A stretch of 63,248 bases of DNA, filler included, from an uncultured Methanosarcinales archaeon (GTDB lineage Archaea > Nanobdellota > Nanobdellia > Woesearchaeales > CAYZNE01), in assembly GCA_964405295.1 (NCBI GenBank). It is 22 parts of 22 records of this genome, joined end to end, with 100 filler letters (N's around TTAATTAATTAA, not from the genome) between each part and the next. Parts side by side here need not be neighbours in the genome. Positions count along the whole stretch, not along the records: positions 30,569 to 33,396 come from CAYONI010000086.1; 21 more parts are not named here. The stretch is one strand, 5' to 3'. How positions within the stretch are numbered: position 1 is the stretch's first letter; the number at the start of each line of letters is the position of its first letter. The notes beneath the pieces are model-generated. The model was not told the origin of the DNA and ran no database searches. It saw only the letters and a list, made by a program, of their open reading frames with translations. This document shows positions 21,420 through 33,396 of this stretch, one piece after another. Both the position numbers and the translations under genes were made by a program.

Positions 21420-21798
21420 TAAAGTATCCTCCTTATTTTAAATCCACTGTTAAATCTATTTTTATAGCATTTTTAGGTAAATATATTTTACAATTANNNN
21501 NNNNNNNNNNNNNNNNNNNNNNNNNNNNNNNNNNNNNNNNTTAATTAATTAANNNNNNNNNNNNNNNNNNNNNNNNNNNNNNNNNNNNNNNNNNNNGAGT
21601 AAGCGTAAATTCGACCCCACTGTGACTATTTTAGATCCTAGGTAATAATGAAGTCATAAGAGGAATCTCATGGCTACAAGCGAAATTCAGTCGGATATTT
21701 TTGGTTGCACAGTATATAAAGATGGAGGGCTGAGTTGCCCTTCAGCATCCTCAACCCCCAATTGCTTGGTTAGTTGTCTTGGTATCAACCCTTCTGGG

Positions 21799-23598
21799 TC
21801 AGTATTTTCCGCCCCGAATAACATAGGGCTCAGTCCTCAAGGGATCTGGCTTTGCCGAACTGAGCAGGGCTTTCTTCTCACTGATATCGGAGAGATCAAT
21901 GTTCCAAGGCAGCAGCTTCTCCCAATCCTCTTCAGTGGAGCAGCTGGGAATCCTGTCCAGGAGTGCCCAGAGATAATCCACCTCGTTGAGATTATTCAGC
22001 TTCGCGTTCTGGGCAAGGGTGAACATTACACTGGAAACCTCAGCCCCTCCATCAGTATCAGAAAAGAGCCAGTTGGATGAACCCATCGAAAATGGCCTTG
22101 TGAATCGCTCGGCCAAATTGTCATCGGGCGTAGCATGGAACTCGCAAGGGTATGCTATGAGCTGGTCCCAACGGTTGAGACAATAGTTTGTAGCCTTTTC
22201 AAGCTGGCTGCCTGGAAGTGCACGGACTTTGGCATCATCGATCCATTTTTTGATTTTTTCAAAAATGGGCTGGGTCTTTTCAGTCCGCAACATGTTGAAG
22301 TCATCTTTTGTTATGGATCCTTTCCCAAACAGCTCTCGCAGTTCCGACTCCACCTTATACAATTCAGAGATATACATGAGCACACTTTTGCACTTTGACT
22401 TCGAGTTTGATTTCAGCAGGGACACAAAACCCCTGCGACCATGAGCCCAGCAAGCCAGCTTGGTGCAGTTCAAATCATTATCCTCGTCGGCGACAGCCAC
22501 GTTATAAGACTGCAGGCCATCGGTCATGAGTGTGCCTGTAAAATTAGGTAGCAGGGCGGCAAGAATCTTGGAATTTCGCTTTACATTGAATGAGAACATG
22601 ACCACGCGCCAGGAATCGGACGTGCCGACCTGGATAATCTCATAATTTTCGGTATCTGAAGCCTTTCCTTCTATATTCAGTACTCGATGGATTGTTTCAT
22701 CCATATTAATTAGAGGACAGGAAAGAAGGCTTTTCCGCAGCAACTCTATCAGAGGGCCACACCTTTTGGACGCGCTGAATATCCAGTTTTTCATATTTTG
22801 CCGCGATATTGCAAAACCCATCCTCTTGAAGTGCTGCTCTTGGCGGTAGAGGGGCATATGGTCAAGATATTTTTTGGTGATTACCTCTGCCAGAATTTCG
22901 TGGCTTATCATCGAGCCCTTGAGGATTCGTTCCGGTTGGGGGTAGACCACGACTGAATTATATTCACCATCCTCAGCCTCATAATCCTCTTCAGGTCCGA
23001 AGACTGGGAAGATATGGTTGTAGATGACTGTGCGGACCTGTTTGCCGAGCTTTTTCTCGCAACGGACGCCAATCTGCACCATAGCCTTACCCGTATTGGA
23101 ATCGATTGGTGTAATACAGTCGCCTGTATGGTCCACATCGATGATAGGAGTATTAGCAGGGAGTGTAGTGAGGTCCTGTTCCTTGTGCTCTTTGCGCTTT
23201 TTTTTGATTATCTCTGGTTCTTCGACTGCAGAGCTTTCGCTGTCATCCTGCTGGCCCTTCTCATATTCCTGATTCTGTTTCTCTACCAGGTCGAGAAGTT
23301 CAGCCTCATCGAAGAGGTTCTTGCAGTAGATATCCAGGGATTTTGATTTCTCACTAGACTTGCCGTACAGTGCGGCCTGAAACTTCTTGATCAGTTCAAG
23401 GGCATTGCGGAGAACCAGCTCCCCATGCTCCTTGGAAAACTGCAAAGCAGCATTGGAGGTGGAGAGCTTTTCGTTCTCCTTGACCACTGCTGCATATTGG
23501 GCTTTGTAGGCATCACGCTCCATCTTGAGCTTGAAAATCTCCTGGGCCATGACTTTTTCTGCCGGTTTCCCGGAGGCGTTATTGCCATTGCTAATCAT
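21799..23598 (-). CDS. tnpC: IS66 DDE transposase TnpC
   Basis: Motifs LYGKSSEK, KYLDHMPLYRQ, INMDET, LMTDG, CWAHGRR and DNLAERFTRP. Confidence 0.95.
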   Translation of the reverse strand: MISNGNNASGKPAEKVMAQEIFKLKMERDAYKAQYAAVVKENEKLSTSNAALQFSKEHGELVLRNALELIKKFQAALYGKSSEKSKSLDIYCKNLFDEAELLDLVEKQNQEYEKGQQDDSESSAVEEPEIIKKKRKEHKEQDLTTLPANTPIIDVDHTGDCITPIDSNTGKAMVQIGVRCEKKLGKQVRTVIYNHIFPVFGPEEDYEAEDGEYNSVVVYPQPERILKGSMISHEILAEVITKKYLDHMPLYRQEQHFKRMGFAISRQNMKNWIFSASKRCGPLIELLRKSLLSCPLINMDETIHRVLNIEGKASDTENYEIIQVGTSDSWRVVMFSFNVKRNSKILAALLPNFTGTLMTDGLQSYNVAVADEDNDLNCTKLACWAHGRRGFVSLLKSNSKSKCKSVLMYISELYKVESELRELFGKGSITKDDFNMLRTEKTQPIFEKIKKWIDDAKVRALPGSQLEKATNYCLNRWDQLIAYPCEFHATPDDNLAERFTRPFSMGSSNWLFSDTDGGAEVSSVMFTLAQNAKLNNLNEVDYLWALLDRIPSCSTEEDWEKLLPWNIDLSDISEKKALLSSAKPDPLRTEPYVIRGGKY

Positions 23599-23671
23599 GC
23601 CCTATAATACACTATTGCAACGATTTAGTACACTGCTTTAGTGAAAATAGGGCATCATTTTGAGGTATTTT

Positions 23672-24019
23672 TCAGCTTAAATCCCCATACAGTTCAGGGA
23701 ATTTTCGCCAGCAATCCTCACCGGAAAGGAACTGCTGTATCTGGTTTGTGGTTATCTCCAGAGCAGCCTCTTCACTCTTTGGCCAGGCGAAGGTACCCCT
23801 GGCATAGAGCTTTTTATACAAAATCCACCACCCGTTGCGGTCCCAAGTCAGGATCTTAACACCCTTACGGGTCTTGCCTGTAAACAGGAACATCTTATTG
23901 GAAAGTGGATCCAGCTCCATCTGGGCTATGACGATCTGGGACAGCTTCTGGGCCCCGCACCTCATATCCACACTTTGGGGGCATATGTAGTATTCGTAGT
24001 TTTCAAAGTCAAAGAACAT
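23672..24019 (-). CDS. tnpB: IS66 accessory protein TnpB
   Basis: Motifs VDMRCG, LFTGKTRKGVKILTWDRNGWWILYKKL and FAWP. Confidence 0.95.
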   Translation of the reverse strand: MFFDFENYEYYICPQSVDMRCGAQKLSQIVIAQMELDPLSNKMFLFTGKTRKGVKILTWDRNGWWILYKKLYARGTFAWPKSEEAALEITTNQIQQFLSGEDCWRKFPELYGDLS

Positions 24020-24422
24020 TCAGGGCCCCCAATGTGGAAAGTAGCTGCGCCAGCAGTGTTGGAGCTATGTCTCCTGCAATGTCTATGTTTGAAGCTCTCA
24101 TTCTGATTCGGATTGCGGAATCGCTTTGAGTATCGGGTAAAGGTTTTGTCTGAACATCCTTTTTTGTTACGGCAACTAGGGAGGGGAAGTCATTGGGCTT
24201 GTTGTCTGCATTGGTAACAGGGCCTCTCTCAGCCCCACGCTTGCAAGCCTCATAATGCCATTTAAGGCAATTTGTTAGATATTGCAACTCGATGCCCCTC
24301 TCTTGGGCATAATGCACCCTTGATGTGCTACCAGTATCAGAACGCCATTGTTCATAATCCTGGAGCATGAGCAGTCTGCTCTGCCGCTCTTTCTCACTTA
24401 TTGTACTTCTTTTTTTCATCAT
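24009..24422 (-). CDS. tnpA: IS66 accessory protein TnpA (HTH)
   Basis: First ORF inside the IS, overlapping tnpB, with a GGAGG RBS before ATG 24422. Confidence 0.75.
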   Translation of the reverse strand: MMKKRSTISEKERQSRLLMLQDYEQWRSDTGSTSRVHYAQERGIELQYLTNCLKWHYEACKRGAERGPVTNADNKPNDFPSLVAVTKKDVQTKPLPDTQSDSAIRIRMRASNIDIAGDIAPTLLAQLLSTLGALNVL

Positions 24423-24727
24423 ATCCTCCAACGATTGTCATTGTCGGATATTGTTCATCTATATTGTAGAGGGCTCGAATTTACGCTTACNNNNNNNNNN
24501 NNNNNNNNNNNNNNNNNNNNNNNNNNNNNNNNNNTTAATTAATTAANNNNNNNNNNNNNNNNNNNNNNNNNNNNNNNNNNNNNNNNNNNNAGTGAAGGTA
24601 GTGTTAAATTGGCTTTTATTTGAAACCATTGTACACTTTTAAAACTAATCTATGTTACAATATAGATGAGAAAACATAAGGGGAATTTTTGTCCTCTTAT
24701 AGGACTATCTTTACGGAGGTTTGTATT

Positions 24728-30468: not shown

Positions 30469-30629
30469 NNNNNNNNNNNNNNNNNNNNNNNNNNNNNNNN
30501 NNNNNNNNNNNNTTAATTAATTAANNNNNNNNNNNNNNNNNNNNNNNNNNNNNNNNNNNNNNNNNNNNGTTATACGACATATTACTCGGAGCCGACAAAT
30601 TTATATAAAACAGAAGTCCCTTTCAGATT

Positions 30630-31076
30630 ATGAGAATAAAAGTAGGAAATTTAGATTTAACAATAAGAAAAGCAACATTGCAGGATTATAATTACTGTTA
30701 TAAATTATTTAAAAGGGATATGTACCAAGTTATTGAAAAGTACTGGGGCTGGAAAAAAGGTAAGTTTAGAAACAATTTTATTCTTTCCCAAGTAAAAATT
30801 TTAGAATATAATAACAAAAGATTTGGATTTTATCAAATATCTATAGAAAATGGAGACTATTACATCAAAGAGATTCACATTTCAAATAATCTTAAAAGGA
30901 AAGGAATAGGTTCTAAATTATTAAGTATAATACAGGATGAAGCTAAGCAGAAAGGACATAAGAAAATTTTACTTCAGGTTTTCAAAGACAATCCTGCTAA
31001 GAGATTATACAAAAGACAAGGTTATAAAGTTAAAAAAGATAAAGGGCCTTCTGTATTGATGGAAAAGAGGATATAG
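30630..31076 (+). CDS. GNAT family N-acetyltransferase
   Basis: Acetyl-CoA motif KRKGIGSKLL and NPAKRLYKRQGY. Confidence 0.9.
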   Translation: MRIKVGNLDLTIRKATLQDYNYCYKLFKRDMYQVIEKYWGWKKGKFRNNFILSQVKILEYNNKRFGFYQISIENGDYYIKEIHISNNLKRKGIGSKLLSIIQDEAKQKGHKKILLQVFKDNPAKRLYKRQGYKVKKDKGPSVLMEKRI

Positions 31077-31078
31077 TA

Positions 31079-31204
31079 TCGGCTCCTGTGTCATACGCTT
31101 CGGATTTCTTTCAGAAATCCTTGGGGTCGCTACGCTTCTCACTTCGTTCGACCCTCGTATAACAGTAATTTGCCAAGTTATACGTAATATTAATCGGTCA
31201 GCCC
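31079..31204 (+). repeat. Structured junction between units 1 and 2
   Basis: In order: TCGGCTCC, CTGTGTCATAC, hairpins at 31102-31120 and 31124-31154, CGTATAAC (31156-31163), a 13-nt spacer, GTTATACG (31177-31184) and GGTCAGCCC. Confidence 0.85.
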
Positions 31205-31242
31205 TCAGAAGATTTAAATATATATAAGAATTTTTTAGAATT

Positions 31243-31674
31243 ATGGATGAAAAAAATATCAAAGAAATTTTGCAAATCATTCTAGATTGTCTTCAAGATA
31301 AAGAATTTGTTTGGAGACTTGAAGGAAGTGCTAATCTAAAAATTCAAGATGTTGATATTTCTGTTCAAGATTTAGACATCACCACAAATAATAATGGAAT
31401 TGAAATTTTTAGAGATGCCTTGAAGAAATATATTGTTAAAGATTTTTTCAGTCAAAAGATAAATGGTTACTCAATAGTCTGCGACATTAATAATTTTGAA
31501 GTTGAGATAAATTCCTATGGTGACAGAGAATTGGATATGTTTGATAAGACTGAAAAAATCTCATGGAATGATTTGCAAATTCCGATTTTACCTTTAGAAT
31601 ACGCTAAAAAATTCTATGAATTAATTAATCGAAAAGAAAAAGTTGATCTAATATCTAAGCATTTAACGGGCTGA
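31243..31674 (+). CDS. Pol-beta-superfamily nucleotidyltransferase-like protein
   Basis: WRLEGSANL...VQDLDIT contains the GS and DxD motifs. Confidence 0.7.
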   Translation: MDEKNIKEILQIILDCLQDKEFVWRLEGSANLKIQDVDISVQDLDITTNNNGIEIFRDALKKYIVKDFFSQKINGYSIVCDINNFEVEINSYGDRELDMFDKTEKISWNDLQIPILPLEYAKKFYELINRKEKVDLISKHLTG

Positions 31675-31733
31675 CCTGTGTCATACTGTGCCTACGCTTC
31701 GCTTCGGCATTTTTCTTGCAGAAAAACGTATAA

Positions 31734-31958
31734 CAGCCAAATTTACAATGTGAAGATTACTTGGCAATTCTTACAAAAAATGAAATAATTCCTGTTGACT
31801 ACACACCAGAAGATTGTAGAGCATTAGTCAAGAAAGCATTTGTTGATAGAAATTACAGAGAGCAAGAATTAATACAACAAGCTTCCAGTTTTAGAACTGA
31901 TGGCAGAGCCACAGAAAGAGTAACAGATTTAGTTTATCAACTTCTTGAAAGCAAATAA
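31734..31958 (+). pseudogene. 3' fragment of a gene (GT-B / sugar-epimerase-like C-terminus) beginning at the unit-2 right end
   Basis: The frame is open from 31734, immediately after the TAA in CGTATAAC, has no ATG, and ends DGRATERVTDLVYQLLESK. Confidence 0.45.
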
Positions 31959-32324
31959 TTTTTTCTTGAGGTCTTCAGCCAAATTTATATTAACTAGCTT
32001 TTTTGGTTTTTCTTCTAAGACATTCATTCCTTTTTTATTATATCTTGGAATAAGATGCCAATGAACATGTTTTGTTTCATCCATATACACCAAATAAACT
32101 TTTTTTATTTTTAATGCTTTAAGCATAGCGTCTCTTACAGCATCAACAACATCCATTAAATGTTCGTATTCTTTTCTCTTGAGCAAATGCAAATCTGTAA
32201 CTTTTTTCTTCCAGACAATAACTACATGTCCTCTTGTTATAGGATAATTTGCTAAAGTTGCGTAGAGATTTTTATCTTCAAAGAAAACTGCTCCCTTTTT
32301 TGGTTTTGGTAAATCCTTGTTCAT
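31929..32324 (-). CDS. HIT family hydrolase
   Basis: HVHWHLIPR histidine triad and PITRGHVVI. Confidence 0.9.
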   Translation of the reverse strand: MNKDLPKPKKGAVFFEDKNLYATLANYPITRGHVVIVWKKKVTDLHLLKRKEYEHLMDVVDAVRDAMLKALKIKKVYLVYMDETKHVHWHLIPRYNKKGMNVLEEKPKKLVNINLAEDLKKKLFAFKKLIN

Positions 32325-32608
32325 AGTTTAAACATAAATAGTTTATTATTTAAGTATTTCTTTTTTACATGTAATTAAAGTATCTAAAGTTCTCTCCTTC
32401 CCTTGATGTGTTTGTTAGATGTGGCTTCGCCCTTTAAAACGGCGTTCTCAAAAACTCTTCGAACGAAGTTTGACCACATTCTGTATGGTCAAAGAACATA
32501 ACAGGAATTTCCAAGTTAGTTTCAATAAGTGGGCGAGCTAAAAGTTAGTCAAATTAAAAATTTGAGAAATAATAAAAAAGAGGTTGGCGTTTATTGTTTC
32601 TTTGCTTT

Positions 32609-32926
32609 TCAAATTTCAAGTGCTTTTTCTAACTGTGTAATTGGGAATCCATGCTCTTTAGCCATTTTTCTTGCACTTGGTTCAGAACCTAAATAACCTT
32701 TACTAATTCTTTCCAAAAGAGAGTGTCCATAACTGGTTTGTATACCTTCTTTAAGTGCTTTTTCTAACTGTGTAATTGGGAATCCATGCTCTTTAGCCAT
32801 TTTTCTTGCACTTGGTTCAGAACCTAAATAACCTTTACTAATTCTTTCCAAAAGAGCTTGATAATTATCCCAGTCTGGAAATTGTTTTCTATATGCATCA
32901 TTAATTGTTCTACTTTGATTTATCAT
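32609..32926 (-). CDS. Hypothetical protein with an exact internal duplication
   Basis: LLERISKGYLGSEPSARKMAKEHGFPITQLEKAL occurs twice. TATA-like TTTAAATA lies upstream of ATG 32926. Confidence 0.6.
   Translation of the reverse strand: MINQSRTINDAYRKQFPDWDNYQALLERISKGYLGSEPSARKMAKEHGFPITQLEKALKEGIQTSYGHSLLERISKGYLGSEPSARKMAKEHGFPITQLEKALEI
32618..32856. repeat. Two identical 104-nt direct repeats (period 135 nt)
   Basis: 32618-32721 is identical to 32753-32856. Confidence 0.9.
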
Positions 32927-33175
32927 AGACAATATAATAAATAACTAGTATTTAAATCTTTCGATTAATTTACTACTATCAAGTTATTACTTTTCATAAA
33001 ACTACACCAACCTCTAAAATAAGCTCGCCCGCTTACTTTGGATTTTTCGGCTTCGCCGAACGTTGCACTAAAATTCAATTCTTCGGATAGTTTAACAGGA
33101 ATTCCTAAGTTATACGAAATTGAGAAAAAGCCTTTAAACCAAACATTTATAACTTCTACTATATAAAATAACAAT

Positions 33176-33396
33176 ATGAAAATATTTAGTGAGAAAATAT
33201 GGAAAAGACACACCAATCCTTTAAGTGGCTGGACTCGAGTAATGGCCTTCTTCTTAATTCCAATATCAGTTTGGTTCCAAAATTGGTATTTTCTAATAGG
33301 GCTTTTAATATTTTTTGCTATCAACCCTATACTTTTTCCCAAACCAAAAAATAAAAATAATTGGATGAGTAAATCTATTTTAGGTGAAGAATTATG
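33176..33396 (+). CDS. Small membrane protein, DUF6653-like (3' truncated)
   Basis: Pattern WKRHTNPLSGWTR...INPILFPKP...WMSKSILGE. Confidence 0.65.

Follow-up and report, generated by a model that had tools for sequence, protein, structure and literature searches.

Why would each gene unit on a small archaeal contig be enclosed by inverted arms of its own? The question arises on contig C86 (CAYONI010000086.1), which occupies positions 30569-33396 of the window, the 63,248-nt stretch of DNA analysed here. The window joins 22 small contigs from a 1.27-Mb, 98-contig assembly (GCA_964405295.1, hereafter G000). The host is likely a DPANN archaeon, because its recombinases have homologs that carry the label Woesearchaeota or Nanoarchaeota. 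C86 starts exactly at GTTATAC and has a G+C content of 30.4%, like the large contigs. It has site elements in common with the chromosome contig C2 (26/27 nt), and the depth of the two contigs is similar in two sequencing runs; on both grounds they likely come from the same population. Judged from its sequence, C86 is a fragment of an integron-like cassette array, and the self-pairing ends appear to mark the cassettes of a widespread array of this kind in small-genome, likely DPANN, archaea. We consider it probable that the arms are the two ends of such cassettes and that they close a single strand, likely the bottom one, into a branched rod which completes an Xer-type recombination site only when both ends belong to the same cassette.

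Results

Pairing of cassette ends in the window

A preliminary description of this sequence had noted three pairs of arms and proposed that each pair is private to its unit, encloses it, and could serve as a self-recognition device. All six arms lie where it placed them (coordinates are on the plus strand unless stated). The outer stem of cassette 1 pairs 30588-30595 with 31079-31086 over 8/8 positions, with 483 nt between the arms, the right arm lying 2 nt past a stop codon. That of cassette 2 pairs 31196-31204 with 31668-31676 over 9/9 positions (463 nt), its right arm overlapping the stop codon. Cassette 3 had been given a 13/14 match (482 nt); its stem is longer, joining 32524-32539, which takes in a conserved AAT, to 33022-33037, which ends in a conserved ACT. 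In units 1 and 2 the left arm begins 19 nt downstream of the G in GTTA (30569 and 31177), behind a shared ATATTAnTC linker. In 300 dinucleotide shuffles of each right flank, the observed score was reached 5, 0 and 1 times for units 1, 2 and 3. Chance is thus a poor account of units 2 and 3, while unit 1 taken alone is modest (p~0.02). When each unit's right end was joined to its own left end and folded as bottom-strand DNA, the cognate joins gave -18.9, -10.8 and -14.8 kcal/mol for units 1-3, against at most -5.2 kcal/mol for nine non-cognate joins of the same right ends. The orphan right end of the HIT unit, joined to the non-cognate left end of unit 4, folded at -10.9 kcal/mol, as well as the cognate join of unit 2 does.

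The enclosing pair of each unit is one layer of two or three nested stems. Each unit contains a second, inner pair of 20-23 bits, borderline on its own: 30610-30623 with 31041-31054, the latter within the gene, 31227-31238 with 31604-31615, and 32579-32590 with 33004-33015. Units 1 and 2 also match their own TAAC end over 9/9 nt counted from the crossover. They represent a subtype (9 stems) with a strong stem at offset 19 and an imperfect linker carrying the same AAT/ACT-type pair, the right-end triplet being ACG at 31095 in unit 1 and ACT at 31685 in unit 2; unit 3 belongs to the main type. In sequencing run X2, a T>C change at 31084 in the right arm of cassette 1 retains a bottom-strand G.T pair.

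Pairing of cassette ends across the family

Complementarity within units recurs in other genomes of the order. Of 84 cassettes that we delimited, 82 remained once near-identical left ends had been taken out; they come from 48 loci, span 288-8586 nt (median 0.9 kb) and include the window's own three. The score was that of the best inverted match of the first 12-70 nt with the final 260 nt of a cassette. Own ends paired with a median of 25.1 bits, compared with 14.75 for 984 foreign pairs (p=2e-35), and 64/82 reached at least 20 bits, as did 4.8% of foreign pairs. At least two nested stems were present in 63/82 cassettes, one in 15 and none in four, and 58/82 exceeded the 99th percentile of the null. 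Cognate circle junctions beat a random foreign join in 70/73 cases (median -19.2 versus -4.0 kcal/mol). Both expectations that the preliminary description had staked itself on, complementarity elsewhere and better folding of cognate joins, are therefore borne out. In a Vibrio superintegron, 49 distinct cassettes from one genome that do have the ordinary R-box match scored 14.3 bits against 14.4, with 1/49 at 20 bits.

The pairing begins at the recombination site itself. The five variable bases that follow GTTA match the cassette's own TAAC end at 3.98/5 positions versus 1.94, a value that 0/2000 permutations attained. In 45/82 cassettes the outer stem starts exactly at AAT, nine bases past the crossover, and in 44 of these 45 the AAT is paired with ACT, which amounts to a G.T pair on the bottom strand. 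The same ACT opens the left arm of attI, the site beside the recombinase; in cassettes it stands 38-131 nt before the TAAC end, with hairpins between. The cassette right end thus reads as the 11-nt attI left arm cut in two by hairpins. As predicted from this layout, the split arm would be continuous as a duplex only once the left end of the same cassette bridges the gap by pairing, held in place by the stem noted at first. The complete architecture is G|TTA-N5-AAT, nested left arms, cargo in either orientation, nested right arms, ACT, hairpins, N5-TAA-C and an attC-like stem.

These results refine the earlier proposal. The pairs do appear to define mobile units, and formation of the full stem would require a single strand that is looped or circular, DNA being the likelier folded molecule and RNA the less likely. 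The unit, which had been drawn as GTTA through the gene to TAAC, instead spans the interval between successive G|TTA crossovers, the attC-like hairpin after TAAC included. Nor are the pairs strictly private: outer arms are distinct in 73/82 cassettes, and four arm sequences are shared, one of them by six cassettes with different genes, and such arms look like frames reused for different cargo. Self-recognition gains a structural basis, namely a stem that would rebuild the split recombinase-binding arm. Because some arms are common to unrelated cassettes, however, they cannot always tell self from non-self.

The cassette site and its short variants

A strict crossover-half pattern was found in 168/401 genomes of the order, with 26 in the reversed control (counted by eye); six of the 168 are unpublished and enter the tallies only. 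Sequences fetched around pattern hits (124 in all) contained 172 sites and the reversed sequence none, under a matrix trained on those sequences. In full, the site consists of TAA-C-A and an 11-bp stem, then a variable loop and the other half of the stem, and lastly GAT and G|TTA-N5-AAT. Ungapped pairing held at 8/11 positions or more in 60 of at least 73 complete sites and was perfect in 25, and one subtype has a single bulge in the stem. The spacers, of 6 versus 8 nt, are mostly paired. Wobbles in the attC-like stems favour the bottom strand by 33 to 4, and bottom-strand energy was lower in 70/73; the two together point to the bottom strand as the folded one. Tandem cassettes lie between palindromic sites with their own R''/R' complementarity, as in integrons, while the extrahelical L-arm bases and unpaired central spacer of integron sites were not seen. 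The stems carry no conserved extrahelical bases, as would suit an enzyme lacking the domain by which such bases are read (Escudero et al. 2016).

Three junctions on C86 are far shorter, with just 12-13 nt from TAAC to GTTA: one of 13 nt (31160-31180) and two of 12 nt (32499-32518 and 33093-33112). All three are bridged by contigs of two runs from two studies, and one of the runs may be the source sample. The fetched arrays hold 29 other sites of 14 nt or less, 15 of them exactly 12, with none of 15-47 nt and none in the control; there are also seven ultra-short, plain TAA-N6-TTA junctions. We considered an assembly artefact and rejected it, the short sites being bridged in two studies and recurrent in other arrays. 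A 12-nt site equals a full site minus its apical stem, with both spacers retained, so that the C86 short sites are best described as recurrent derivatives without that stem. One cassette, 94% identical in its two copies, ends in a full site in G222 and in the plain form in G319. Cassettes ending in short sites mostly keep their private stems (at least 20 bits in 12/18 and 4/7; one of the 18 is the mis-paired interval between unit 2 and the HIT unit of C86). A strict short-site pattern was too narrow to be useful, recovering only G000 in 401 genomes and only one of the three C86 sites. A looser one matched 22/301 genomes and about 12 control genomes (by eye), and 3/9 inspected loci were clear cassette sites. 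On the minus strand of locus L181 (G319:C29, 8759-13835), five plain TAA-N6-TTA-N5-AAT junctions follow one another, and loci L176 and L230 have plain junctions as well. Such junctions are the product expected of a recombinase that religates a folded site to itself or recombines the site's two halves.

The recombinase and attI

G000 encodes two XerA-like genes, which we call C1 type and C2 type after their contigs. The C2 locus is complete: upstream of the recombinase lie a dif-like attI and then five cassettes running away from the gene, each with the architecture seen in the window and each ending in a palindromic site. An attI beside a recombinase with the array leading away is thus found at the C2 locus and not on C86. 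A second attI allele, on contig C53, is the same as the C2 allele up to GTTA and differs directly after.

No G000 gene scored above the TIGR02249 cut-off for the integron integrase IntI. The C2 recombinase (G000:C2:114708-115544) reached 186 bits (cut-off 265), its match halting at profile position 179 and resuming at 243. Its alignment to archaeal XerA (4a8e, E 1.2e-47) has no long gap, and that to IntI4 (2a3v) breaks at the insert. By these alignments the C2 recombinase lacks the IntI-specific insert (I2, or intI_Cterm).

Relatives of the C2 recombinase (E<=1e-72) occur in 31/401 genomes, with at most six candidates scored per genome. The cassette-site pattern accompanies them in 20/31 genomes, compared with 148/370 others (p=0.013, related genomes not being independent). 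We examined 30 recombinase loci, comprising 28 from the 30 other genomes together with C2 and C53. At 20 of the 30, a site of the form ACT-N5-TAA-N6-TTA-N5-AAT lies 40-330 nt upstream of the gene; the same type of site was present at 0/6 other Xer genes and in 8.75% of random windows. A quick tree of 82 rows gathers the C2 type into a single group of 35 rows (SH-aLRT support 85), with a core of 32 rows (support 99), although this group was sampled by likeness to C2. It is separate from C1-type XerA and from IntI; the tree leaves the base and the order of the three open. The rows of the tree took in 20 of 80 distant Xer loci from a metagenome profile search and three integrases from four integron loci of Pseudoalteromonas and Aliivibrio, of which nothing but the integrases was used. 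The 80 distant loci were generic Xer matches and were left out of the cassette statistics. A single-sequence recombinase search of genome contigs returned seven loci, only two of them close, and no array was seen with a simple pattern at a Xer locus of Persicobacter.

Several further observations concern these loci. The C2 array (G000:C2:108200-114592) carries housekeeping-looking cargo, including SurE above the TIGR00087 cut-off and a cis-prenyltransferase-like gene, and one of its cassettes has, by eye, an apparent tRNA-like sequence near 108380-108460. At the second attI allele (G000:C53:443-4056), the first cassette holds genes resembling an ATP-dependent helicase, a protein with a tail like that of C-type lectins and formylglycine-generating enzyme, and Avd; we take this set to resemble the usual company of a diversity-generating retroelement. 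A long imperfect palindrome just downstream of the C1-type xerA (G000:C1:171140-171260) is a possible dif region. In G002 (C5:8858-9678) the C2-type recombinase is frameshifted, with attI and array still present. The first cassette or its start is doubled in tandem next to attI at L030 (G030:C3) and L036 (G243:C19); the G030 unit is 300 nt long and has no open reading frame (ORF) of 80 aa or more, and the L036 sequence contains an N gap.

Cargo and boundaries of the window cassettes

Cassette 1 (30569-31176) extends from its crossover G|TTA, the G being the first base of C86, to the last base before the next crossover. Its left recombinase arm is G|TTA-N5-CAT (30569-30580), and a GNAT acetyltransferase gene of 148 aa occupies 30630-31076 (PF00583, E 2.5e-12). 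The split right arm (31095-31163) comprises ACG at 31095-31097, two hairpins and N5-TAAC, with TAAC at 31160-31163. Cassette 2 carries a nucleotidyltransferase-like gene of 143 aa (31243-31674) that matches PF10706 under the family cut-off (E 9e-4). Its split right arm (31685-31740) has ACT, two hairpins, N5-TAAC (31731-31734) and a spacer with no GTTA after it, so the right junction appears to be broken or to lie at a secondary site. A 73-codon open frame follows that spacer (31735-31958); it resembles the end of a host gene, with no NCBIfam match. A HIT-family gene lies on the minus strand (31929-32324), in a unit whose right end is the TAAC at 32499 and whose left end is absent from the window. 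The region past cassette 2 may represent a deletion or a secondary-site insertion. Cassette 3 contains an antisense ORF of 107 aa (32609-32932, minus strand) with an internal duplication: two 107-nt copies, 99% identical, at a spacing of 135 nt (32615-32856), which no matched contig of the two runs spans together. Cassette 4 carries a DUF6653 gene (33176-33396) truncated by the contig end. The cargo of C86 thus consists of the GNAT gene, a weak nucleotidyltransferase, the HIT protein, the unassigned ORF of cassette 3 and DUF6653. Elsewhere in the bin, high-G+C contigs have a foreign look (window 21597-24490, C65, C76 and C87), with genes that, as far as we can judge, resemble IS66-like and RIT-like triple-recombinase genes.

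Signs of mobility

The signs of cassette mobility are indirect. One cassette is 94% identical in two genomes where its downstream neighbours differ, the second cassette of C2 is the first cassette in G253, and a cassette is duplicated in tandem in G030. The attI alleles of C2 and C53, within one assembly, diverge right after GTTA. No circle junctions were seen in contigs of the two runs matched to C86 and the C2 array; the joints listed in that comparison were short sides at 90% likeness and were not used.

Discussion

How might paired ends serve a cassette? In integrons, according to Loot 2017, both flanking sites must be folded simultaneously for excision, which for weak sites declines as length grows. 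Here, replication would expose the strand, and the bottom strand would fold. The resulting rod would bring the two flanking attC-like hairpins together and favour excision of exactly one cassette, multi-kilobase cassettes included. The folded site of the circle would approximate a plain duplex with a 2-nt spacer bulge and would be recombined with double-stranded attI by the dedicated XerA-like recombinase, after which replication would resolve the junction. Such an enzyme would be able to do without the IntI insert, since the site offers it no conserved extrahelical bases. We put forward more tentatively, and with somewhat more doubt than belief, the larger proposal that this is a complete cassette platform run by an insert-less Xer-type recombinase, in which directionality and single-cassette excision are encoded in the DNA by each cassette's own ends zipping up a split arm.

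Several points weigh against this role for the arms. C86 itself lacks a recombinase; of its four junctions three are short and one is broken, and it is tied to the C2 locus only indirectly. Across the family, 18/82 cassettes score below 20 bits and four have no stem. Wobbles in the private stems (39 bottom, 26 top, p=0.14) show no significant strand bias, and the sharing of some arms by unrelated cassettes also tells against recognition of self. Relatedness among the genomes means that their cassettes are not independent samples, and the loci scored also served to train the site matrices. Finally, 148 of the 168 genomes with the site pattern have no detected C2-clade recombinase at E<=1e-72.

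That last observation is what one would expect if housekeeping XerA, acting at the chromosomal dif, moved the cassettes as passengers, the adjacent recombinase being incidental or itself housekeeping. The attI is laid out like a dif site, and in G030, a genome that is 100% complete, no enzyme but the C2-type one appears at E<=1e-45. We nevertheless find this improbable. A second, C1-type XerA is present in G000 and in 4/5 other genomes tested, the six Xer loci of other types have neither the site upstream nor any cassette site within 1.5 kb, and the C2 type stands as its own clade within the limits of a tree sampled by likeness to it. Contigs end less than 600 nt upstream of the recombinase in 16/30 loci, so the gene would often be lost in binning. 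A more serious alternative, though still an unlikely one, reads the private stems as scars left by the formation of cassettes or by template switching: one folded end would prime copying of the other, leaving the noncoding arm as an inverted copy at a gene boundary, and only the AAT/ACT pair would act. A stem lies within -15 to +5 nt of the stop codon in 18/34 sense and 13/22 antisense cassettes (figures inflated by choosing the nearest stem), as the right arm of cassette 2 illustrates in the window. Stems with a coding right arm and a noncoding left arm outnumber the reverse by 27 to 9, some inner stems arising by chance, and the lack of wobble bias in private stems is as expected of unselected copies. 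What this reading handles poorly is the fixed offset of the outer stems with their conserved, strand-specific ACT/AAT pair, the same outer frames holding unrelated genes, and the near-perfection of the stems, with 2110 Watson-Crick cells against 29 true mismatches, although the stems had been chosen for their pairing. The stop-codon and coding biases, together with the wobbles of the private stems, favour an origin of the stems by copying during cassette formation. Such an origin is compatible with the arms acting as cassette ends and may explain how they arise without excluding a role.

Two other possibilities carry much less weight. The pairs might form an RNA panhandle that protects or regulates the cassette transcript, for the GC-rich arms hug the gene and the single mismatch of unit 3 is a G.T pair on the top strand. 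We regard this as very improbable, since the layout is alike in sense (41), antisense (28) and mixed (11) cassettes and site wobbles favour the bottom strand. The left arm of units 1 and 2 contains an AT-rich, TATA-like box, so that the unit's own transcript would lack that arm, and an Rfam scan of C86 gave five matches, all far under gathering scores. Least credible of all are terminal inverted repeats of tandem-stacked, non-autonomous transposons, derived from miniature inverted-repeat elements or insertion sequences. Inverted ends do flank a passenger gene, and some arms recur in families. However, the arms are internal, set in by 9-19 nt from the left boundary and by 38-131 nt from TAAC, most of them differ between cassettes, and the units abut at G|TTA in Xer-like sites, stacked from a site beside a tyrosine recombinase.

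If the arms are instead the ends of integron-like cassettes, as we prefer, the system resembles several known ones without coinciding with any of them. Like integrons, it has a tyrosine recombinase gene divergent from attI, tandem cassettes with or without promoters, a G|TT crossover, a palindromic site with its own R''/R' match and bottom-strand wobble bias, and small accessory cargo (GNAT, HIT, toxin-antitoxin-like pairs, restriction-modification-like genes). Unlike integrons, its recombinase appears to lack the IntI insert, the site stem has no conserved extrahelical bases, the spacer is nearly paired, and nested closing stems with a hairpin-split arm lie outside the R box, a feature absent from the 49 Vibrio cassettes. 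Although it is integron-like in its workings, two features that define integrons were not found, and we therefore set it apart as a variant and not a member. Compared with archaeal XerA/dif (PDB 4a8e, 5hxy; NCBIfam NF040815), it offers an 11-6-11 style site and a recombinase whose best structural relative is 4a8e; it differs in having a clade separate from the genome's other XerA and tied to a variable cassette array. The dif modules (pdif) of Acinetobacter plasmids place single genes between Xer-type sites, and the seven ultra-short junctions look like plain double-stranded sites of that sort. Here, unlike in pdif modules, all sites face one way, most have a long hairpin, and the ends pair mutually. 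Integrative mobile elements that exploit recombination by Xer (IMEX), such as CTXphi with its attP(+), use a folded single-stranded site that mimics a duplex, has no extrahelical bases and is served by an Xer enzyme without I2 (Escudero et al. 2016, PMC4792948), a configuration that is predicted here. IMEX hijack the host XerCD and are not complete systems, according to the same source. The present arrays, unlike IMEX, have a dedicated recombinase clade and their own attI beside stacked, non-replicating cassettes, and their fold needs both cassette ends.

Archaeal integrons with IntI were found by Ghaly et al. 2022 (PMC9668308), in whose Data S3 all 28 Nanoarchaeota rows are clusters of attC sites lacking integron integrases (CALINs), with no IntI among them. 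Cury et al. 2016 judge recombinases without the IntI domain near attC not to be integron integrases, and the accessible text of Smyshlyaev 2021 and Ghaly 2021 makes no mention of such a group. We found neither the nested stems nor a DPANN cassette recombinase without the insert described in the full-text literature, subscription papers being mostly outside that search. How the IntI-specific domain and attC could each have arisen in the absence of the other, and how cassettes are made, are both stated to be unsolved (PMC4792948, PMC5371416, PMC4889954). A recombinase clade, a conserved attI and many cassette sites together make a testable system that bears on both questions. If our reading is true, it would be a living example of the stage before I2, which Escudero et al. 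2016 (PMC4792948) treat as a chicken-and-egg problem, or else a parallel invention, and the stop-codon-anchored stems would record how new cassettes are made. Tools based on IntI may file such arrays as orphan arrays. With its site pattern in 168/401 genomes of the order, the system may be a main route by which these archaea exchange accessory genes.

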